Sequence record: PP856269
Reading direction: 5' to 3' (one strand)
Origin: Escherichia phage UFJF_EcSW4
Length of the DNA: 40,299 nt
Within the stretch, counting starts at the first letter, position 1, and the number at the start of each line of letters is the position of its first letter. Shown one piece after another: positions 1 through 40,299 of this stretch. A program made the translations under genes and the position numbers. The notes under the pieces were generated by a model, which was not told where the DNA came from, ran no database searches, and was given only the letters and a program-made list of their open reading frames with translations.

Positions 1-286
1 CAAGAACCTCAAGTCTCCCCATAGGCCCTCTTTCAGTCTCGACCAAAGGCCCTACCCCAGTATATCATAAGGTTGGACCGATGGTCAAGACTTCAGGTCA
101 ACGATAGGTGGTGACTATGGCTTCGGGAAGGACGATAGGTGGTGACTATAGGCCCTCTTTCAGTCTCGACCAAAGGCCCTACCCCAGTATATCATAAGGT
201 TGGACCGATGGTCAAGACTTCAGGTCAACGATAGGTGGTGACTATGGCTTCGGGAAGGACGATAGGTGGTGACTATTGGTCTGTCT
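1..286. repeat. Direct terminal repeat, left copy (286 bp, identical to 40014-40299)
   Basis: First 286 nt (caagaacctcaagtctcc...gactattggtctgtct) recur exactly at the window end; T7-like phages carry direct terminal repeats. The true DTR may extend beyond the window edge. Confidence 0.9.
21..276. repeat. Two tandem 128-bp units (21-148, 149-276) inside the terminal repeat, each holding two copies of an 18-bp motif ACGATAGGTGGTGACTAT
   Basis: Read directly: ataggccctctttcagtctcgaccaaaggccctacccc...ggtggtgacta repeats head to tail with period 128; the 18-mer sits at 101-118, 132-149, 229-246 and 260-277. Confidence 0.9.
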
Positions 287-8479: not shown

Positions 8480-8650
8480 ATGACTGACGTAGAAAAGAAG
8501 TACATCGTGGAGCTTGAGGGACGCGTTCAGTCCTTCGAGGTTCCGTTGTACGCAAAGTCTCTTGAAGAGGCTACCCTGAAGTCCCAAGAGTATGAGGACG
8601 CTGGTTTTGTGGTCGGACGGATTCGTCCTGAGACTAAACTATCACTGTAG
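8480..8650 (+). CDS. 2: gp2-like inhibitor of host RNA polymerase
   Basis: 56 aa from the internal ATG with SD ggaagga; [14 protein letters not shown]...[10 protein letters not shown] matches T7 gp2 (SFEVPIYAETLDEA...AGFEVTRVRP). The track ORF starts at 8402. Confidence 0.8.
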
Positions 8651-8656
8651 GACAGA
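8634..8656 (+). promoter_or_regulatory. Phage RNAP promoter variant (CACTGTAGG; phi2.5-position)
   Basis: CTAAACTATCACTGTAGGACAG with one A-to-G change in the conserved core; overlaps the last codons and TAG stop of gp2. Confidence 0.55.
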
Positions 8657-8695
8657 CGTCAAGTTCGTAACTTTTAAATTAGGAGATTTACACCA

Positions 8696-9391
8696 ATGGC
8701 TAAAGAGCAACTGAAGACTTTCACCACTCCGGTAGCTGGTATCGTTGAGCCTTACGCATGGCTGAACAAAGCAGACACCAAGTTTAACGAGCGTGGTGAG
8801 CATAAGGTTAACCTGACATTCGACCTGAGCAACCCGAAGGTCCGTAAGATGATTGATGTCTTACAGAAGATTCACGACGATGCGTATGCGAAAGCACTCG
8901 CAGACCACGAGAAGAACCCACCTCAGGTTCAGCGTGGCAAGAAGCCTATTGAACCACGAGAAGGCGACATGCCGTGGATTGAGAATGGTGACGGTACTGT
9001 TACCATGAAGTTTAAATGCTTCGCGTCTTACCTGAAGGATGGTAAGTCTGAGCCTATCATATTACGGTTCTACGACACCGATGCTAAGTTAATCCGTGAC
9101 GTCCCGAATATTGGCGCTGGCTCAAAGCTGAAGGTCAAGTTTAAAGTCCTGCCGTTTAAGTGGAACGCTGCGACTGGTGCAAGCGTTAAGCTCCAACTTG
9201 AGTCCTGCCTTCTGGTAGAACTGAAGGAGTGGAAAGGTGATGGTGCTGGTGGCGATGGTGGCTGGGGTGACGATGAAGACCTCGGTACTGGCTACAAAGC
9301 GTCAACCGATGGTGACTTCGGGTCTGATGACTTCGGTGACGATGGTTCCGAAGGTGGTGACGATGATTCCGAAGGCGATTACAACTTCTAA
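8696..9391 (+). CDS. 2.5: Single-stranded DNA-binding protein
   Basis: 231 aa; GDMPWIENGDGTVTMKFKC, GAGSKLKVKFKVLPFKWNAATGASVKLQLES and the acidic C-terminal tail ending in F match T7 gp2.5. Confidence 0.95.
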   Translation: MAKEQLKTFTTPVAGIVEPYAWLNKADTKFNERGEHKVNLTFDLSNPKVRKMIDVLQKIHDDAYAKALADHEKNPPQVQRGKKPIEPREGDMPWIENGDGTVTMKFKCFASYLKDGKSEPIILRFYDTDAKLIRDVPNIGAGSKLKVKFKVLPFKWNAATGASVKLQLESCLLVELKEWKGDGAGGDGGWGDDEDLGTGYKASTDGDFGSDDFGDDGSEGGDDDSEGDYNF

Positions 9392-9840
9392 TGGCTACAG
9401 TGAAAAGCCTTAAGCAGCGACTCATGGTTTCGGGTGACTGCTGGCTTTTTACAGGCTGCGTTAACAACAAGGGCTACGGTCAGATTAGGCATAATGGGAA
9501 AACCATGCTTGCACATCGCGTAGCCTACGAGCTGATTACAGGTGAGGAACCTAACGGTGTTCTACTACACACTTGTGACACTCCGCTATGTTGTAACCCT
9601 GAGCATATGACTGTAGGAACCCAACGGGACAACCTTCAGGACATGCGTAACAAGGGGCGCGGTGTAAACCCTCCTCATGTTCCGGGAGAGAAGTGTGGTA
9701 TGTCTAAACTTACCAACACTAAAGTCAAGGAAATTAGGTCTTCCAGCCTTACCCAGCGACAGCTCGCCACAATCTACGGAGTGTCTCAGCCGACAATAGG
9801 TAAGATACTAAGGAGAGAAACATGGCGACACGTAATATAA
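9391..9840 (+). CDS. HNH homing-endonuclease-like protein with C-terminal helix-turn-helix (gene 2.8 position)
   Basis: VNNKGYGQIRHNGKTMLAHRVAYE...HTCDTPLCCNPEHMTVGTQRDN is an HNH_3-type motif; C-terminal LTQRQLATIYGVSQPTIGKILRRETWRHV is HTH-like; start overlaps the gp2.5 stop (TAATG). Confidence 0.8.
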   Translation: MATVKSLKQRLMVSGDCWLFTGCVNNKGYGQIRHNGKTMLAHRVAYELITGEEPNGVLLHTCDTPLCCNPEHMTVGTQRDNLQDMRNKGRGVNPPHVPGEKCGMSKLTNTKVKEIRSSSLTQRQLATIYGVSQPTIGKILRRETWRHVI

Positions 9841-10277
9841 GCAGGGGTCACTCGATAGGAATATACCGTTCCGGCCTTGAGGCCAAGAACCAAGAGTGGC
9901 TAGAGAAGAACGGAGTTAAGGCTGAGTACGAAATGTATAACATTAAGTACACAATACCTGAGTCACTCCATAGTTATTGTCCAGACTTTGTTCTTCCAAA
10001 TGGAATCATCGTGGAGACCAAGGGAATCTTCGCAGTCGAAGACCGTAAGAAGCACCTTCTGGTACGAGAACAGCACCCAGAGTTAGACATCCGGTTCGTG
10101 TTCTCAAGTTCACGCTCCAAGTTATACAAAGGGTCTCCGACCACGTATGGCGCATGGTGCGAAAAGAACGGCTTTAAGTATGCCGATAAGTTCATCCCGG
10201 TTGAGTGGCTGCGAGAGGCGACTGTACGTCTGCCTTCAGGTATCCTCATCCCCAAGAAGAAAGGAGTTAAGTTATGA
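9822..10277 (+). CDS. 3: Endonuclease I (Holliday junction resolvase)
   Basis: YRSGLEAKN...PDFVLPNGIIVETKG...DRKKHLLVREQHPELDIRFVFSSSRSKLYKGSPTTYG matches T7 gp3. Confidence 0.95.
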   Translation: MATRNISRGHSIGIYRSGLEAKNQEWLEKNGVKAEYEMYNIKYTIPESLHSYCPDFVLPNGIIVETKGIFAVEDRKKHLLVREQHPELDIRFVFSSSRSKLYKGSPTTYGAWCEKNGFKYADKFIPVEWLREATVRLPSGILIPKKKGVKL

Positions 10278-10498
10278 CTCAAGAAGTTAAGGTCGTTCGT
10301 AAGCGTCTGACCATTGATAAAATCCCGGTAGGCTATGCGTTTATCGTACACGGTAAGCCGGGTGAAGTGTACGTGAAGATTAGTAACTCTCACGTCTTCA
10401 ACCATAAGTTGCTCCAGATGCACACCACGGATGCTAACCGCTTCCAACGTCATCTGAACCTCGTAGCTGTAGAGCTGGTGGTGTACGATGGTGAGTAA
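10274..10498 (+). CDS. Hypothetical protein, 74 aa, between endonuclease I and the amidase
   Basis: ATG overlaps the gp3 stop (ATGA) and has an SD (aaaggag); T7 has no gene here. Confidence 0.5.
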   Translation: MTQEVKVVRKRLTIDKIPVGYAFIVHGKPGEVYVKISNSHVFNHKLLQMHTTDANRFQRHLNLVAVELVVYDGE

Positions 10499-10946
10499 GG
10501 TTCAGTTCAACCCACGGTCCCGCACTGACGCTATCTTCGTTCACTGTTCGGCTACAAAGCCAGATATGGACATCGGGGTAGAGACCATCCGTATGTGGCA
10601 CAAGCAGCAAGGCTGGCTGGACGTAGGCTACCACTTTATAATCAAGCGCGATGGTACTGTGGAAGAGGGTCGCCAGGTCAATGTCGTAGGGTCCCACGTT
10701 AAGGACTGGAACTCACTGTCTGTAGGCGTCTGCCTTGTAGGTGGAGTTGACGCTAAGGGCAAGTTTGAAGCTAACTTCACTCCAGCCCAGATGAACTCCC
10801 TGCGCAACAAGCTGGCTGACCTGAAAGTCCTGTATCCTCAGGCAGAAATCAAAGCACACCATGACGTAGCACCTAAGGCGTGTCCAAGTTTTGACTTGCA
10901 ACGCTGGCTGTCTACCAACGAACTGGTCACTTCCGACCGTGGTTAA
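10488..10946 (+). CDS. 3.5: N-acetylmuramoyl-L-alanine amidase (T7 lysozyme family)
   Basis: TDAIFVHCSATKP, WLDVGYHFIIKRDGTVEEGR, HHDVAPKACPSFDL and the C-terminal NELVTSDRG match T7 gp3.5. Confidence 0.95.
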   Translation: MVSKVQFNPRSRTDAIFVHCSATKPDMDIGVETIRMWHKQQGWLDVGYHFIIKRDGTVEEGRQVNVVGSHVKDWNSLSVGVCLVGGVDAKGKFEANFTPAQMNSLRNKLADLKVLYPQAEIKAHHDVAPKACPSFDLQRWLSTNELVTSDRG

Positions 10947-10970
10947 TAAACTCTAAGGGAGAATAGCTCA

Positions 10971-11186
10971 ATGATTAAACTTATCGAATTTCTTGGTCGT
11001 CTGGTGGTGCGTGGCTATCGTCGTGCTGCGGTTCTGGAACGAAAGGTAGAAAAGAAGACTGCTGACGGTGCGGCTGATGCTGCTGCTCTGGCTGACAAGC
11101 TGACCATCGCGTCACTGGAAGCTGGCATGAAGGCACGTCAGGCTGACACCAAGGCTGACCAGTTGTCTCAGTTCTTCAAAGACTAA
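10971..11186 (+). CDS. Hypothetical protein, 71 aa
   Basis: ORF with SD (aagggagaatagctca ATG); its stop TAA lies inside the following promoter. Confidence 0.5.
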   Translation: MIKLIEFLGRLVVRGYRRAAVLERKVEKKTADGAADAAALADKLTIASLEAGMKARQADTKADQLSQFFKD

Positions 11187-11204
11187 ACTATCACCTTAGG
11201 GATG
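11182..11204 (+). promoter_or_regulatory. Phage RNAP promoter variant (CACCTTAGG; gene 4 promoter position)
   Basis: ACTAAACTATCACCTTAGGGATG; two mismatches in the -4/-3 region, so probably weaker. Confidence 0.45.
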
Positions 11205-11254
11205 GGACCATGAGTCCTGTCCCTTTGTTCGCATTTGTGACTAAGGAGTGACCG

Positions 11255-11434
11255 ATGGTTACAGTTATTCTAGTTCTAACGCTTATCAGTGGTAGTGGGC
11301 AAACTATCAGCCAAGTACCTATAACAGCACCAACATTACAGGACGCATTCACAATATGTGACCAGTCCGGCTCAAAGTGGGCCGACAAGTTTGGCGATGT
11401 CTCAAACGTTGCAGCAGGGTATGAGTGTATTTAA
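11255..11434 (+). CDS. Possible small protein, 59 aa, hydrophobic N-terminus
   Basis: MVTVILVLTLISGSG...; preceded by TAAGGAGTGACCG ATG, almost the same 13-nt SD context that precedes the primase gene at 11445. Confidence 0.35.
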   Translation: MVTVILVLTLISGSGQTISQVPITAPTLQDAFTICDQSGSKWADKFGDVSNVAAGYECI

Positions 11435-11441
11435 GGAGTGA

Positions 11442-13145
<1,704 letters not shown>

Positions 13146-13187
13146 TCGGGACATAGCTGACTATAAGAATTTTACGGAGGACCGTTA

Positions 13188-13352
13188 GTGTTAAAGAAAC
13201 TTAAAGCTCGATACCACATGTTCATGTACAAATGGTGGAGCGATGAAGCAACCTGCCTGTCGAACATTCTGGGAGACCAGCGGTTCAACTCTGAGGCATG
13301 GAAGAAAGCTAACCGGAAGTTCATGTATCACTTCTTGCGTACAGACTTCTAG
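13188..13352 (+). CDS. Possible small protein, 54 aa (gene 4.3/4.5 position), GTG start
   Basis: GGAGGA followed at 6 nt by GTG; VLKKLKARYHMFMYKWWSDEATCLSN...; below the track cutoff; start uncertain. Confidence 0.3.
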   Translation: MLKKLKARYHMFMYKWWSDEATCLSNILGDQRFNSEAWKKANRKFMYHFLRTDF

Positions 13353-13354
13353 GT

Positions 13355-13395
13355 CTAGACTCAAGGTCATTCACAGCGAGTGGCCTTTATGATTA
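13355..13395 (+). promoter_or_regulatory. Conserved RNA element, candidate RNase III processing site (R4.7-position)
   Basis: CTAGACTCAAGGTCATTCACAGCGAGTGGCCTTTATGATTA; second copy of the element seen at 5828 and 37006. Confidence 0.4.
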
Positions 13396-13420
13396 GACTT
13401 ATAACTAAAGGAGAAGCAAT

Positions 13421-13852
13421 ATGAGGACTTGTAGTAGATGTGGCTATACAAAGGAGTCCACTGAGTTCAGGAAGACAAATGGGTGGTGCATATCCTGTGT
13501 TCGTGAGGATAATAGGTCGCGATATCATCGAAACAAAGGTACAGAGGCCGGTGAGGCACATCGCCTATCTGCCCGTAAGTCTTGGCTTAAGAAAGCCTAT
13601 GGTCTCACACTTGAGGAATATGACACTATGTTCGATAGTCAAAAGGGCAGATGCGCTATATGCTCAGACATTATCTTCAAGCATGGGTCTATTGAGAGTA
13701 AGAATAATGTAGCCCACGTTGACCATTGCCATGACTCAGGTATTGTTAGGGGATTGCTATGTGGTACATGTAATAGCGCACTTGGTAAGTTCGGTGACAA
13801 GTTAGCCGTGCTTAGGGCTGCTATAGCGTACTTGGAGAAATATAATGTTTAA
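13421..13852 (+). CDS. Endonuclease VII-type (HNH superfamily) nuclease
   Basis: 143 aa with CxxC...HVDHCH...GLLCGTCNSALG, the zinc/His-Me signature of the T4 endonuclease VII family. Confidence 0.75.
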   Translation: MRTCSRCGYTKESTEFRKTNGWCISCVREDNRSRYHRNKGTEAGEAHRLSARKSWLKKAYGLTLEEYDTMFDSQKGRCAICSDIIFKHGSIESKNNVAHVDHCHDSGIVRGLLCGTCNSALGKFGDKLAVLRAAIAYLEKYNV

Positions 13853-16016
13853 TCTCAACTCAATCTATGGCACAGATATAGAGACTGACGGTCTACTAGA
13901 CACTGTGTCACAGTTCCATTGTGGTGTTATCATTAACGCTGGAACTCAGGCTACTGAGAAATATGGTGTTGCCCCTATGACTGGGCTGACAGGTGGATTC
14001 AAAGAGTACATAGACCGCATAGAATCTATTATGGCATCCACTGACGGTATGCTGGTTCTGCACAATGGTGTGAACTATGATATACCAGCCTTGAAAATAC
14101 TGAAGAAGAAATACTTTGGTAAGAACCTAAATGTGAATAAGGGTCGAATTATTGATACCTTGGTGCTGGGGCGCTTGATGTATCCAAACATTAAGTTCTC
14201 AGACATGGGCGCAGTGAAATCGGGTCGTCTGCCACCTAGTATGATGGGACGTCAGTCTCTTGAGGCTTGGGGCTATCGTCTTGGTGAGATGAAGGGTGAG
14301 TACAAACACGATTACGTTGCCAAGTGCAAGGCCGAAGGTATAGAATATAAGGCTGGGGACGAATGGTTGTTCCCGTCTCAGGAGATGCTGGACTATAACG
14401 TTCAAGACGTTGTGGTCACACTGGCGTTGTTCAAGAAGTTCCTGACTGACAAGTATTACTTCCAGTCTGAACAGTTCGCTTTCGACCAGATTTATGCGTT
14501 GCGTCTGGAACATGATGCTGCGTGGACCTGTGCGAAGATGGAACGTAACGGCTATCCGATGAACACCGAGATGGTCGAAGGTTTATATCGTGAACTCACC
14601 GTCAAACGTGCAGAGCTGCTGGACAAGCTGCGTTCGACTTTCGGCAGCTGGTACGCACCAAAGGGAGGCAAGGAGTTCTTCAAGCACCCACGGACAGGCA
14701 AGGACCTTCCGAAGTATCCGCGCGTCGTGTATCCTAAGGTCGGGTCAGTATTCAAGAAGCCGAAGAACAAAGCTCAACGCTTAGGTCTGGAGCCTTGCGA
14801 GTTCGACTCACGAGACACGATGGAGGGAGCGCCGTTCACACCTATCACTTACGTTGAGTTTAATCCGGGAAGCGGGGACCACTTAGCGAAAGTTCTGATG
14901 GAGCGTGGTTGGGAGCCTGTTGACTTCACTGACACTGGGAAACCTGTAGTCGATGACGAGACGTTAGAACACGTTAAGTTACCAGACGCAGAGGCTCAGG
15001 CTTGCGTAGAGCTGGTCCGTGAGTATCTGGTAGTCCAGAAGCGCATCGGTCAGGCGGCTGAAGGTAAGAACGCATGGTTGAAACTTGTAGGTCCAGACGG
15101 ACGTATGCACGGTTCAATCAACCCTTGTGGAGCAGTAACCGGACGTGCGACCCATAGTTCACCAAACATGGCTCAGGTCCCGGCTAACGGTGCTCCATAT
15201 GGTGAGACTTGCCGTGGTGCTTTCGGTGCAGCGTGGAACAAGAAGGACGGTAAGCCAGACCCTTGGATTCAAGTGGGAGTGGATGCTTCAGGTCTTGAGC
15301 TTCGTTGTCTGGGGAACCGAGCGGCTCCGTTTGATGGTGGCGCCTATGCGAAGACTGTGGTCGAAGGTGACATCCACTGGGCCAACGCAGTCAACGCTGG
15401 GTTAGCACCTAACGTCCCACGCGATAAGTCCAGCCACGACCATGATGCTTTCCGTAACAACGCTAAGACGTTCATCTATGCGTTCCTGTATGGTGCAGGG
15501 GCCGCTAAGATTGGACTGATAGTCGGCGGTGGTAAGAAGGAAGGTTCAGCTCTCATGAAGAAATTCATTGAGGGTACACCAGCCATAAAAGACCTCAGGG
15601 AAGCTGTGAGTAAGACGTTAATCTCTGAGTCCAAATGGGTAGACGGTGAGAATATCGTGAAGTGGAAACGCCGCTGGCTTAAAGGCTTGGATGGTCGACG
15701 CATCCACATCCGGTCTCCACACTCAGCACTTAACGCCTTACTTCAGGGTGACGGTGCGGTAGTCTGTAAGCACTGGATGGTACTGACTGAGAAGAAACTT
15801 GAAGAGGCTGGTTACGGTAACGGATGGGACGGCGACTTTGCGCTAATGGCTTGGATTCACGATGAATTGCAGATAGCGTGCCGTACTCAGGAGATAGCAG
15901 AAGATGTCGTCCGTATCGCTCAAGAGGCGATGCGCGAGGTCGGACGCTTCTATAACTTCAAGTGTGACCTTGATACGGAGGGTAAGATTGGACCAACGTG
16001 GAAAGAGTGTCATTGA
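13845..16016 (+). CDS. 5: DNA polymerase (family A, with 3'-5' exonuclease domain)
   Basis: 723 aa; FHCGVI, LEAWGYRLGEMKGEYK, DYNVQDVVVT, GAVTGRATHSSPNMAQVP, DASGLELRCLG, NAKTFIYAFLYGAG, HDELQ match T7 gp5; the frame is contiguous with no intein or intron. Confidence 0.97.
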   Translation: MFNLNSIYGTDIETDGLLDTVSQFHCGVIINAGTQATEKYGVAPMTGLTGGFKEYIDRIESIMASTDGMLVLHNGVNYDIPALKILKKKYFGKNLNVNKGRIIDTLVLGRLMYPNIKFSDMGAVKSGRLPPSMMGRQSLEAWGYRLGEMKGEYKHDYVAKCKAEGIEYKAGDEWLFPSQEMLDYNVQDVVVTLALFKKFLTDKYYFQSEQFAFDQIYALRLEHDAAWTCAKMERNGYPMNTEMVEGLYRELTVKRAELLDKLRSTFGSWYAPKGGKEFFKHPRTGKDLPKYPRVVYPKVGSVFKKPKNKAQRLGLEPCEFDSRDTMEGAPFTPITYVEFNPGSGDHLAKVLMERGWEPVDFTDTGKPVVDDETLEHVKLPDAEAQACVELVREYLVVQKRIGQAAEGKNAWLKLVGPDGRMHGSINPCGAVTGRATHSSPNMAQVPANGAPYGETCRGAFGAAWNKKDGKPDPWIQVGVDASGLELRCLGNRAAPFDGGAYAKTVVEGDIHWANAVNAGLAPNVPRDKSSHDHDAFRNNAKTFIYAFLYGAGAAKIGLIVGGGKKEGSALMKKFIEGTPAIKDLREAVSKTLISESKWVDGENIVKWKRRWLKGLDGRRIHIRSPHSALNALLQGDGAVVCKHWMVLTEKKLEEAGYGNGWDGDFALMAWIHDELQIACRTQEIAEDVVRIAQEAMREVGRFYNFKCDLDTEGKIGPTWKECH

Positions 16017-16047
16017 CCCTCGAACCCAGACCCTACGCTTCCACACC

Positions 16048-16329
16048 ATGCCTACCGGATGTATCGTCTGCGTGTCCCACAAGAGGAACCAAGATGGGTA
16101 CTTCCGGTACTCCATGGGAAGTTACAGGAAGGGCAACAAGTTCGCCTTCATGTTCCACCGATGGGTGTGGGAGCAGAAGCGCGGACCTATACCAAATGGC
16201 TACGAAATAGACCATTTGTGCTTGAACCGTGGGTGCTGCAACATAGAGCATCTACAGTGTATTCCAAAACGCGAACACGTCATTAAGACGAACCGTGAGC
16301 GCAAACTTGTTAAGAAGGAGTGTCACTAA
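16048..16329 (+). CDS. HNH homing-endonuclease-like protein (gene 5.3 position)
   Basis: From the first ATG after the polymerase stop: GCIVCVSHKRNQDGYFRY...HRWVWEQKRGPIPNGYEIDHLCLNRGCCNIEHLQCIPKREHV. The open frame continues upstream to 15904, overlapping the polymerase 3' end. Confidence 0.7.
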   Translation: MPTGCIVCVSHKRNQDGYFRYSMGSYRKGNKFAFMFHRWVWEQKRGPIPNGYEIDHLCLNRGCCNIEHLQCIPKREHVIKTNRERKLVKKECH

Positions 16330-16487
16330 TGGAGACTTACACCGAACAGGAGGTCAAAGACCTGATGCGGTCAGCTTGGTGGTGTGGACACGAGGAGTCT
16401 CGCTATAGTCCAAACCTCAGCGGACAGTGCAGTCGAGACATTCGTGAAATTCTTAAAGAACATAACGAAGAAGAAGGAGAAGGCTAA
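16329..16487 (+). CDS. Possible small protein, 52 aa
   Basis: ATG overlaps the upstream TAA and its own stop overlaps the next ATG (TAATG at both ends); METYTEQEVKDLMRSAWWCGHEE... Confidence 0.35.
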   Translation: METYTEQEVKDLMRSAWWCGHEESRYSPNLSGQCSRDIREILKEHNEEEGEG

Positions 16488-16771
16488 TGGCTATTACTAA
16501 ACGTATTCGTGTGAGTTTTGATCTGAAGATGGTTGTTAACTCAAAGGAAGAAGAGACCATGTGTCGCCAACTGGCTGAGATGACTAAAGCCTACGCTGAG
16601 GGTGAGAAGCTGGATGGTCTTCAGATGGCTCTGGTCAAAACCGCAATCGAGTCAGGCCCTGAGTCTGCCCTTGAAATTGCCCTCAAGAAGACCATCAAGG
16701 AGGAGCTGGTAGACGCCTTTGGTGATGACCAGTTCGGAGTATCTAACCTGCGATTCGAGGTCAAGCAATGA
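16487..16771 (+). CDS. 5.5: gp5.5-like protein (H-NS-binding family)
   Basis: MAITKRIRVSFDLKM... versus T7 gp5.5 MAMTKRFKVSFDVTA...; similar length. Confidence 0.75.
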   Translation: MAITKRIRVSFDLKMVVNSKEEETMCRQLAEMTKAYAEGEKLDGLQMALVKTAIESGPESALEIALKKTIKEELVDAFGDDQFGVSNLRFEVKQ

Positions 16772-16977
16772 GTGAATACTTACGGGTCCTAGCGGCCCTT
16801 AAGTCCTGCCCGAAGACCTTCCAGTCCAACTATGTGCGCAACAACGCTGCACTGGTGGCTGAGGCTGCGAGTCGTGGACATCTAAGCTGCCTGTCTATGG
16901 ATGGGCGTAACAACGGTGCGTGGGAGATTACCGCTGCTGGCACCAAGTTCCTGAACCAACACGGAGGCTGCCTGTGA
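16768..16977 (+). CDS. 5.7: gp5.7-like protein
   Basis: LKSCPKTFQSNYVRNNAALVAEAASRGHLSC...GAWEITAAGTKFL is near-identical in pattern to T7 gp5.7. Confidence 0.85.
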   Translation: MSEYLRVLAALKSCPKTFQSNYVRNNAALVAEAASRGHLSCLSMDGRNNGAWEITAAGTKFLNQHGGCL

Positions 16978-17429
16978 AGATACCTGAAAGTCTGAAAGAG
17001 CTGGTCCTTGACATAGGTGAGTGTGAGTGCGAGAAGGAGCACCGCAAGTACGCTGAGTTCTACGCATCTTGGTCATACACCTTGACAGAGAAGGACGTTG
17101 AGTCCTACACCGAGTCTCCTTCTGAGGCTTATGAGTGGAGTCCGTTCATCGGACTGACCATCGTAGCCAGTGGTATGTGGAATGACAGCTACGGTTCAGA
17201 GGTAAATGACTGGGGAGTATATCGCCAGGTTGAGAAGGAGACTGAGATGTCTTCAAACTTCTGGAACCTGATGTCCCACCTCAACTCAGAGGACAACGAC
17301 ATGGCACATGAGTTCGCCAACAAATGGCTGAAGCCTGAGGTGACTCTGGAACGTATTGAGGAGCCTAAAGTTCCCTTGATGCCATATGCAGTCGCTATGG
17401 CTACAGGAGGTCTGGACGATGGGTGCTGA
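16974..17429 (+). CDS. Acidic hypothetical protein, about 152 aa (gene 5.9 position); start uncertain (GTG at 16974 or 16920)
   Basis: GTG at 16974 overlaps the gp5.7 stop with GGAGG 6 nt upstream; product is rich in Glu/Asp; no sequence similarity to T7 gp5.9 recognised. Confidence 0.5.
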   Translation: MKIPESLKELVLDIGECECEKEHRKYAEFYASWSYTLTEKDVESYTESPSEAYEWSPFIGLTIVASGMWNDSYGSEVNDWGVYRQVEKETEMSSNFWNLMSHLNSEDNDMAHEFANKWLKPEVTLERIEEPKVPLMPYAVAMATGGLDDGC

Positions 17430-18288
17430 GAAGAATATAGCTCTTGTTCTTGATGGCGATTACCTAGTATTCTCTTCTATGGCTGCTGCCGAGGAAGAGA
17501 CAGACTGGGGTGATGACATCTGGACCCTTATCTGCGACCACGAGAAGGCTCGCCGTATCCTTGAGAACACCATCGCTGAAATCGTTAAGAAGCGCAAGGC
17601 GTGGAAAGACGCTAAGATTGTGATGTGCTTTACTGATGATAACAACTGGCGTAAGGACGTTTTGCCTACCTATAAGGCTAACCGTAAGGGTTCTCGCAAG
17701 CCTGTAGGTTACAAGAAGTTCGTAGCCGAAGTGATGGCTGACCCACGGTTCAACAGCTTCCTGCGTCCAACGCTTGAGGGTGATGATTGTATGGGTATCA
17801 TCGGGACCAGACCTCAGATTGTCGGATGCGACCATGCGGTGCTGGTGTCCTGCGATAAGGACTTCAAGACCATCCCGAACTGTGAGTTCTTCTGGCTAAC
17901 CACTGGTGAAATCCTGAGTCATACGACTTCCGAGGCAGACTACTGGCACATGGAGCAGACCATCAAGGGTGACACTACAGATGGCTACGGCGGTATTCCT
18001 GGGATGGGTGAGGACATCACTCGTGCATTCCTTGACGAACCGTATTACTTCGTGCAGGAGAGCCGCGAGCTTAAGACTGGCAAGAACAAAGGCCAGATTA
18101 AGACTGAGTGGAAGAAGTATCCGAAGCGTGAAGACATGACGCTGTGGGACTGCATGGTTACACTGGCTGCTAAGGCTGGCATGACCGAGGAGGAACTTCT
18201 GGTCCAAGCTCAGGTTGCTCGTATTTGTCGAGCCTCTGACTATGACCCTAAGTCCAAGGAGGTCATCCTATGGACACCATCCATGTAA
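17419..18288 (+). CDS. 6: 5'-3' exonuclease
   Basis: LVLDGDYLVF, KIVMCFTDDNNWRK, YKANRK, KPVGY, SCDKDFKTIPNCEFFW, TIKGDTTDGY, WDCMVTLAAKAGMTEEEL match T7 gp6; start at the ATG with AGGAGG 9 nt upstream (track ORF begins at 17386). Confidence 0.93.
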   Translation: MGAEKNIALVLDGDYLVFSSMAAAEEETDWGDDIWTLICDHEKARRILENTIAEIVKKRKAWKDAKIVMCFTDDNNWRKDVLPTYKANRKGSRKPVGYKKFVAEVMADPRFNSFLRPTLEGDDCMGIIGTRPQIVGCDHAVLVSCDKDFKTIPNCEFFWLTTGEILSHTTSEADYWHMEQTIKGDTTDGYGGIPGMGEDITRAFLDEPYYFVQESRELKTGKNKGQIKTEWKKYPKREDMTLWDCMVTLAAKAGMTEEELLVQAQVARICRASDYDPKSKEVILWTPSM

Positions 18289-40013: not shown

Positions 40014-40299
40014 CAAGAACCTCAAGTCTCCCCATAGGCCCTCTTTCAGTCTCGACCAAAGGCCCTACCCCAGTATATCATAAGGTTGGACCGATGGTCA
40101 AGACTTCAGGTCAACGATAGGTGGTGACTATGGCTTCGGGAAGGACGATAGGTGGTGACTATAGGCCCTCTTTCAGTCTCGACCAAAGGCCCTACCCCAG
40201 TATATCATAAGGTTGGACCGATGGTCAAGACTTCAGGTCAACGATAGGTGGTGACTATGGCTTCGGGAAGGACGATAGGTGGTGACTATTGGTCTGTCT
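40014..40299. repeat. Direct terminal repeat, right copy (identical to 1-286)
   Basis: Exact identity with the window start, including the internal 128-bp tandem duplication. Confidence 0.9.

Follow-up and report, generated by a model that had tools for sequence, protein, structure and literature searches.

The replication module of Escherichia phage UFJF_EcSW4 (sequence record PP856269; the whole stretch of 40,299 nucleotides (nt) is referred to as the window) contains three nuclease genes, designated HEG1, HEG2 and HEG3 (HEG, homing endonuclease gene). They are embedded in a T7 gene order, comprising the genes for a single-stranded DNA-binding protein (SSB; gp2.5), endonuclease I (gp3), lysozyme, primase/helicase (gp4), DNA polymerase (gp5), a gp5.5-like protein and an exonuclease (gp6). 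Kayfunavirus (K1F-like, T7-family) coliphages match this module at 92–95% identity, with ~320 matching phage records, none of which has HEG1, HEG2 and HEG3 together. An earlier note, made from the sequence alone, had placed nuclease open reading frames (ORFs) at 9391–9840, 13421–13852 and 16048–16329, the last in a frame open from 15904; all three were found to be present and intact. The nuclease genes, the conserved genes that adjoin them and the elements described at their borders lie on the + strand.

HEG1 (9391–9840) was assigned by Pfam and homology searches to the HNH_3 nucleases of the T7 gp2.8/gp7.7 family. Its HNH_3 domain (PF13392) scored 35.9 bits, above the cut-off of 24.8 bits (gathering score), and the catalytic/structural residues H60, N69, H72 and N81 are kept in an alignment of eight HNH proteins, together with a cysteine cluster. 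The gene had been described as encoding both an HNH and a helix-turn-helix (HTH) domain. The former assignment stood, whereas the C-terminal HTH is weakly supported, because HTH_psq (20.0 bits, cut-off 20.4) and HTH_3 (19.0 bits, cut-off 23) both fall just under their Pfam cut-offs. HEG1 is 40.9% identical to T7 gp2.8 (E-value 2e-29) and 46.5% identical to T7 gp7.7. It has in common with both proteins an H-x-C-D-x-P-L-C-C-N-P-E-H core and a GVSQxTI helix-turn-helix-like tail, with the HEG1 motif aligning to the tail of gp2.8, and it occupies the same slot as gene 2.8, between genes 2.5 and 3, with a similar ~20-nt overlap of gene 3. It differs in that the identity to the T7 proteins is only ~41–47% and in that it is rare in Kayfunavirus (three phage records). 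Comparison of HEG1 and HEG3 with the sequences in the PDB gave matches at chance level only.

The gp2.5-type SSB gene (8696–9391; Pfam SBB_T7, 243 bits) is coupled to HEG1, as the earlier note had stated, with its stop codon and the HEG1 start overlapping as TAATG (9389–9393). At its 3' end, HEG1 overlaps the start of the endonuclease I gene (gene 3; 9822–10277; Pfam Phage_endo_I, 247.6 bits) by 19 nt, and gene 3 gains a new Shine-Dalgarno (SD) sequence and ATG inside the 3' end of HEG1. In empty-site phages, genes 2.5 and 3 are joined by TAATGG, and junction alignments place the HEG1 insertion point precisely at this sequence. HEG1 DNA was detected by blastn in three of the ~320 related records. 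Among 17 Kayfunavirus loci, the slot between genes 2.5 and 3 holds HEG1 in four cases, a different HNH gene in one and another insert in one, and it is empty in the remaining 11. At locus L105 (871–1300), the slot is occupied by a distantly related HNH_3 gene, and at L109 (~1245–1300) yet another insert follows the SSB gene.

A divergent tract linked to HEG1 was recognized in the mismatch profile of the 5' part of gene 3 (~9841–10045). Here, the nucleotide divergence from empty-site relatives reaches ~25–45%, dropping to 0–5% beyond, and the divergent first ~200 nt of the gene are common to the HEG1-bearing genomes. At the amino acid level, endonuclease I is 92–100% identical in genomes with HEG1 versus 85–86% in empty-site genomes.

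HEG2 (13421–13852), identified by a Pfam Endonuclease_7 match and by homology to F-CphI, encodes a DHHRN-type nuclease (Endo VII motif) whose N-terminal part contains a CxxC...CxxC region. The Endonuclease_7 domain (85.2 bits) covers residues 55–140 of 143 and is thus C-terminal. The gene is preceded by its own SD sequence (AAAGGAGA), and its last 8 nt double as the start of the polymerase gene (13845), whose SD it also provides in place of the usual one. Both the endonuclease VII-type assignment and the overlap with the polymerase start had been proposed previously and were borne out. In an alignment to structures, D101, H102, H104, R110 and N118 of HEG2 correspond to D40, H41, H43, R54 and N62 of T4 Endo VII, and the zinc cysteines (C78, C81, C114 and C117) are all kept.

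Residues 2–141 of HEG2 align to residues 10–141 of F-CphI (36% identity, E-value 6e-24), the product of an S-PM2 gene adjoining the intron-containing psbA gene. F-CphI is a homing endonuclease in which the D/H/H/R/N and zinc cysteine residues are essential (PMC6083498). HEG2 matches this cyanophage protein in both the N-terminal CxxC...CxxC region and the C-terminal D-H-H-R-N/four-cysteine motif, and, like F-CphI, it is free-standing beside a conserved gene, in a phage that has a separate resolvase (endonuclease I). The two systems differ in the neighbouring gene, which is psbA in one and the DNA polymerase gene in the other, and there is no intron at HEG2. Immunity is conferred via the intron in the case of F-CphI and apparently via a divergent 5' tract of the polymerase gene in the case of HEG2. 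In T7-like Aeromonas and Klebsiella phages, homologues of HEG2 with 47–54% identity either lie just 5' of the polymerase gene or overlap it. The Pfam Endonuclease_7 and T4 Endo VII structure matches of HEG2 might suggest a T4 Endo VII-type Holliday-junction resolvase with a role in replication and recombination, but this is highly improbable, given that the phage already has endonuclease I, that the motif is C-terminal, with the T4 Endo VII match confined to residues 64–127 and the whole protein aligning with F-CphI rather than with full-length Endo VII, that HEG2 is found in only four of the ~220 related records matching the conserved element just upstream, and that Endo VII-motif proteins of endonuclease I-encoding podoviruses fall in the endonuclease clade, not the resolvase clade (PMC6083498).

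The left boundary of the HEG2 cassette, as determined by blast and junction alignment, is a conserved 47-nt intergenic element (13353–13399), so that HEG2 sits between this element and the polymerase ATG. The element is 98–100% identical in most of the 221 records matching it by blastn, four of which have full-length HEG2. Among 27 Kayfunavirus loci, the slot before the polymerase gene contains HEG2 in three cases and a different HNH gene in two. At L050 and L065 (~1100–1500), only distantly related HNH_3 genes are found in this slot. T7 gp4.7, considered as a homologue of HEG2, occupies the same slot and is not homologous.

The identity profile of the polymerase gene shows a divergent 5' tract linked to HEG2 (13853–14150). 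Over nt 1–300 of the gene (13845 to ~14150), relatives lacking HEG2 are 57–72% identical to the window, versus ~90–100% beyond, with a sharp edge near 14150; the HEG2-bearing genomes are 98–100% identical over these 300 nt. When the whole phage collection was searched, the tract was 97–100% identical in just the four HEG2-bearing records; a donor was not found, the next best match outside these four phages being 72% identical. The Endo VII-type HEG in the polymerase intron of Yersinia phage Berlin is homologous to HEG2 (46% identity over the catalytic half) but does not mark the 5' target of HEG2, because this intron lies ~1.6 kb into the polymerase gene.

HEG3 lies at the 3' end of the T7-type DNA polymerase gene (gene 5; 13845–16016; Pfam DNA_pol_A), which spans 2172 nt and is collinear with its relatives. 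An Rfam search of positions 8500–17500 (E-value ≤ 0.1) returned zero RNA families, and the polymerase gene was therefore taken to be intronless. HEG3 encodes an HNH_3 nuclease of the T3 gp5.3 family, with a proposed coding sequence (CDS) of 113 amino acids (15988–16329) and a minimal version at 16048–16329. The HNH_3 domain scored 68.9–69.6 bits (69.6 bits for the minimal form), compared with the cut-off of 24.8 bits, and supported the earlier assignment of 16048–16329 as an HNH gene, the start of which probably does not hold. Residues H76, N85, H88 and H97 (113-amino-acid numbering) are kept in the eight-protein alignment, again with a cysteine cluster. Loss of the catalytic HNH residues, which had been named as evidence against homing genes, was thus checked for, and the residues proved to be retained in the window's copies.

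HEG3 is 85.6% identical over 90 amino acids to T3 gp5.3 (NP_523323) and 51% identical to the I-TslI-type HNH protein (gp19B) encoded in the intron of the K1F polymerase gene. T3 gp5.3 was reportedly named F-TslI by Bonocora and Shub (2009), who are reported to have found that it cleaves at the intron insertion site. The T3 gene and HEG3 both lie immediately 3' of gene 5. The T3-type genes start from an SD and ATG of their own (N-terminus MGGVATLRFHK), whereas HEG3 is without such an ATG and likely starts at a TTG inside the polymerase gene. In addition, T3 gp5.3 ends in ...LVKK*, followed by AGGAG, whereas the C-terminus of HEG3 is extended by four residues of the old polymerase tail (ECH and the shared K). 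A further difference from the T3 gp5.3 and K1F gp19B systems is that the left flank of HEG3 is shared with an unrelated PD-(D/E)XK cassette. The first catalytic histidine is invariant across the eight aligned HNH proteins and coincides with H34 of T7 gp3.8, the residue mutated as the active-site histidine (10.1101/2025.09.07.674715).

HEG3 DNA was detected by blastn in 113 of the ~320 related records. Among 27 Kayfunavirus loci, the slot after the polymerase gene contains an HNH gene in six cases, a PD-(D/E)XK gene in four, and a small ORF only in four; it is empty in 11, and in the remaining two the polymerase gene is interrupted by an intron that contains an HNH gene. Decayed copies of HEG3 are present in TH20 (64-nt deletion), SP7 (1-nt deletion) and KM02 (GGA to TGA), and these three copies are pseudogenes. 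The alternative occupant in HC13 (L001; 7360–7776), L035, L041 and L042 is a PDDEXK_5, T7 gp5.3-like gene. T7 gp5.3 itself was rejected as a homologue of HEG3; it is PD-(D/E)XK-like, as is HC13_0026. The left flank of the HNH cassette (GGAGGG-TTG in the polymerase gene) recurs at the PD-(D/E)XK cassette, in some genomes along with the right flank, which suggests that nuclease bodies have been swapped between fixed flanks in this slot.

The annotation of the HEG3 start in GenBank is inconsistent, with at least four different starts among the homologues (L097–L103 and L003) or no annotation at all. The record of Morganella phage MopsHU1 uses the TTG-equivalent start inside the polymerase gene, and that of Providencia phage EPr2 uses ATG 16048. 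The records of Pipis, SD6 and SP7 use downstream (internal ATG) starts, and R1 and KM02 leave the homologue unannotated. ATG 16048 lies 3' of the polymerase stop, from which it is separated by a 31-nt "spacer", and is without an SD. The 11 codons that precede ATG 16048 show, when read in the HEG frame, 10 synonymous codon variants versus three amino acid variants, including CTA/TTG and CGC/AGG swaps, whereas the corresponding counts are 3 versus 13 and 1 versus 14 in the other two frames. Because this substitution pattern is of the coding type, the spacer appears to be translated. The stretch also has TLRFH in common with the ATG-initiated N-terminus of T3 gp5.3. ATG 16048 is therefore probably not the true start of HEG3.

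The nearest canonical in-frame start upstream is TTG 15988 (15988–15990), which is preceded by GGAGGG (15977–15982) and a 5-nt spacer, all inside the polymerase CDS. ACGGAGGG is found in 8/8 genomes with an HEG3-type cassette flank and ACCGAAGG in 17 genomes without a cassette, and GGAGGG is confined to cassette-bearing genomes. In HC13, where the PD-(D/E)XK gene has the same flank, this TTG is the sole usable start. We consider it likely, with some reserve, that the HEG3 CDS starts at TTG 15988 and extends over 113 amino acids (15988–16329), with a 29-nt overlap of the polymerase gene; this start predicts the stretch DQRGKSVIDPRTQTLRFHT, which is outside the form starting at ATG 16048. Two points weigh against this assignment: an in-frame GTG (15964) and TTG (15970), both without an SD, are likewise common to all HNH loci, and the SD-like GGAGGG falls in conserved T-E-G codons. 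The earlier proposal that the third nuclease gene overlaps its likely target is upheld insofar as the 29-nt overlap is likely, although the overlapped tail itself is not the expected target.

Two other gene models were weighed. In the first, HEG3 would start at ATG 16048 and encode 93 amino acids, with no polymerase overlap and a non-coding upstream frame. This model has a canonical start codon and the EPr2 annotation in its favour, and re-initiation at this ATG, 32 nt past the polymerase stop, is conceivable; yet the missing SD, the excess of synonymous variants in the upstream codons and the conservation of TLRFH with the T3 gp5.3 N-terminus make it unlikely. In the second, the real gene would be the full 141-codon ORF from ATG 15904, overlapping 37 polymerase codons. 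The earlier note had described the frame as open from 15904 in the last ~37 codons of the polymerase gene, which is correct for the window and also holds in 6/10 relatives with HEG3, and GGAG lies 10 nt 5' of this ATG. However, the frame is broken by an in-frame stop in 4/11 HEG3 loci, two of which also have AAG in place of the ATG. Moreover, chance alone leaves ~10% of 48-codon stretches open, and in T3-type relatives the frame ends where the polymerase gene stops. By this comparison, the 15904 ORF is a non-conserved accident, and the probability of its being the real gene is very small. A polymerase–HEG3 frameshift fusion was also considered and discarded; neither a slippery site nor any other support turned up for the +1 shift that it would require.

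Besides the overlap at its start, HEG3 shares a second sequence with the polymerase gene, which the earlier note had missed. The end of HEG3, AAGGAGTGTCACTAATGG (16315–16332), equals the polymerase tail of HEG-less relatives. It comprises the last four HEG3 codons (KECH*) and also the SD and ATG of the next gene. K1F and most other cassette-less genomes have the identical sequence where their polymerase gene ends and gene 5.5 begins, which marks it as a probable fossil of the ancestral polymerase tail and downstream start. The polymerase gene now carries a synonymous, recoded duplicate of this tail, AAAGAGTGTCATTGA (KECH*; 16002–16016). In cassette-less relatives, the polymerase end consists of AAGGAGTGTCAC followed by TAA or TAG, with the exception of L053, which has TGCCAT and a TGA stop. 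The empty-site end reads tggAAGGAGTGTCACTAATGG, in which the next gene has AAGGAG as its SD and ATG as its start codon, whereas the polymerase gene of the window ends in tggAAAGAGTGTCATTGA and HEG3 in ...gttaagAAGGAGTGTCACTAATGG. Since the HEG3 end matches the empty-site polymerase tail, HEG3 appears to read through the ancestral tail in the polymerase's own frame. From these ends, we infer as the simplest history that the HEG3 cassette arose via recombination at the AAGGAG microhomology.

A cassette-linked 3' tract of the polymerase gene (~15770–16016), defined by identity profile, site alignment and haplotypes, spans the equivalent of a known intron site. The insertion point of the K1F group I intron aligns to 15860/15861 of the window (cac/gat), in motif C (HDE). 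The K1F intron was matched by the full Rfam Intron_gpI model with 35.6 bits (E-value 2e-7), which is below the Rfam gathering score, so that it was detected only under an E-value threshold. Over the last ~250 nt of the polymerase gene, 6/7 other genomes with the HNH or PD-(D/E)XK cassette flank are 86–97% identical to the window, HC13 being the exception (68–75%). Cassette-less or intron-containing genomes mostly show 72–80% identity, with L036 as an outlier (83–94%), and T3-type HNH genomes 61–71%. Just 5' of the intron-site equivalent, CTAATGGCTTGGATTCAC is present in 7/8 cassette genomes (not in HC13) versus TACATGGCNTGGGTNCAY in cassette-less genomes. L040 and L047, which carry T3-type HNH genes, have a third polymerase 3' haplotype, with AIMAFVHDEVQVAA at motif C and ~64–66% identity to both the window and T3. 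A T3 origin of the polymerase 3' tract in these T3-type HNH relatives is excluded by the identity of 64%.

In Kayfunavirus, the slot after the polymerase gene may represent a portable "landing pad", in which a recoded polymerase tail embeds an SD (GGAGGG) and a TTG start for whichever nuclease body is present, HNH or PD-(D/E)XK, with the bodies swapped and the HNH version ending in the fossil tail from AAGGAG recombination; we give this reading an even chance. If it is true, the start signals of a HEG are hidden inside an essential gene.

The three nuclease genes are probably independent, free-standing homing endonuclease genes, each in a known optional slot of T7-family phages. This conclusion, which agrees with the earlier view of homing-type genes beside essential replication genes, is drawn because the active-site residues are intact, the genes are present or absent at exact junctions, divergent tracts are linked to them, decayed copies exist and homologous systems are known. 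The comparison across related phages that the earlier note had proposed finds each HEG in only some close relatives, at precise boundaries, and the gain, swapping and decay seen in the slots are as expected for homing endonuclease genes.

In a mixed infection, each nuclease would cut the neighbouring essential gene of a HEG-less relative. The break would then be repaired from the HEG-bearing genome, so that the HEG and an adjoining piece of donor sequence are both copied in, and this piece would also render the carrier immune to its own nuclease. The predicted target of HEG1 is the 5' part of gene 3 or the junction of genes 2.5 and 3, and that of HEG2 is the first ~300 nt of the polymerase gene. 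For HEG3, the target is more likely the motif C region around 15860/15861, ~130 nt 5' of TTG 15988, than the overlapped polymerase tail; at the corresponding position, K1F has a group I intron that encodes an HNH homologue. The HEG3 cassette would have entered within the last codons of the polymerase gene, which would thereby have received the recoded KECH* tail carrying GGAGGG and TTG, and HEG3 would read out via the old polymerase tail, which still supplies the SD and ATG of the next gene. Cleavage, the target positions and the use of the TTG start are inferred from sequence comparison. The HEG-linked tracts agree with the traces expected of co-conversion during homing and would also confer self-immunity, and they represent a correlation rather than observed events.

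Several points weigh against this interpretation. The HEG targets are deduced solely from linkage and homology, and the HTH scores of HEG1 lie under the Pfam cut-offs. Ordinary mosaic recombination, with boundaries that coincide with the HEGs, could also yield linked divergent tracts.

The nucleases may instead be kept for the benefit of the phage, through interference competition against co-infecting relatives or through DNA-binding attenuation of a host defence, a function that would be compatible with homing. T7 gp3.8, with which HEG3 shares a GPIPxGYxIDH core, and another phage HNH homing endonuclease attenuate GAPS4 defence independently of catalysis, according to a preprint that also cites work on homing-endonuclease-mediated interference competition (10.1101/2025.09.07.674715). 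As the main reason for the maintenance of these genes, such a benefit is improbable, because their patchy distribution, the unrelated alternative occupants of the slots and the decayed copies fit optional selfish elements better.

The interpretation as homing genes has precedents in systems described previously. Intronless homing has been described (PMC6083498, PMC3984707), and the picture obtained for HEG3 matches the "collaborative homing" that a review (PMC3984707) summarises for the work of Bonocora and Shub of 2009. Free-standing HEGs such as the T4 seg and mob genes, and nuclease genes at the boundaries of genetic exchange, are treated in PMC2988022 and PMC10055350. Intronless homing by the T4 genes resembles the situation in the window in that optional genes are found between conserved genes, flanking markers appear co-converted and mosaic boundaries lie at nuclease genes; it differs in that a T7-like replication module is concerned here and one insertion lies within the last codons of the target gene itself.

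The ends of the window (1–286 and 40014–40299) are perfect direct terminal repeats of 286 bp, within which there are internal repeats of ~130–150 bp in length, and the window was therefore taken to be a complete T7-like genome, of the Kayfunavirus (K1F-like) type. A tblastn search of the window with HEG1, HEG2, HEG3 and related nucleases revealed no further paralogues of these families. Between HEG3 and the gp5.5-like gene lies a small optional ORF of 52 amino acids (16329–16487; METYTEQEVKDLMR...) without a Pfam or other family match, which is located directly 3' of the polymerase gene in four relatives and is missing in others. Just 5' of the primase/helicase gene (gp4; 11445–13145), there is an optional ORF of 59 amino acids without a Pfam family (11255–11434). 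The DNA compared (11258–11430) is missing in HC13, K1F and R1 and 96–100% identical in 16 other records, e.g. Vec13 and Pipis. The gene between those for endonuclease I and lysozyme is variable, with an ORF of 74 amino acids in the window (10274–10498) and one of 156 amino acids in K1F and R1 (L002 1909–2379), and its sequence is divergent in several relatives.

Optional homing endonuclease genes, such as T7 2.8, 3.8 and 5.3 and T3 5.3, are a long-established feature of T7-family phages, and the presence of three such genes in a T7-family phage is therefore expected biology. To this the comparisons add a corrected model of the HEG3 gene, the polymerase tail in its fossil and duplicate forms, and sharply bounded mosaic tracts linked to the HEGs in gene 3 and the polymerase gene. 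The corrected model concerns an HNH gene that is widely mis-annotated. With empty-site relatives, alternative occupants and a sharply bounded linked tract for each HEG, the phage would provide a clean natural case for the study of intronless homing, for which target predictions are supplied (the 5' end of gene 3, the 5' 300 nt of the polymerase gene and polymerase motif C). The coincidence of mosaic boundaries inside the essential polymerase gene with nuclease genes is relevant to polymerase-based phage taxonomy and to the engineering of K1F-like therapeutic phages.

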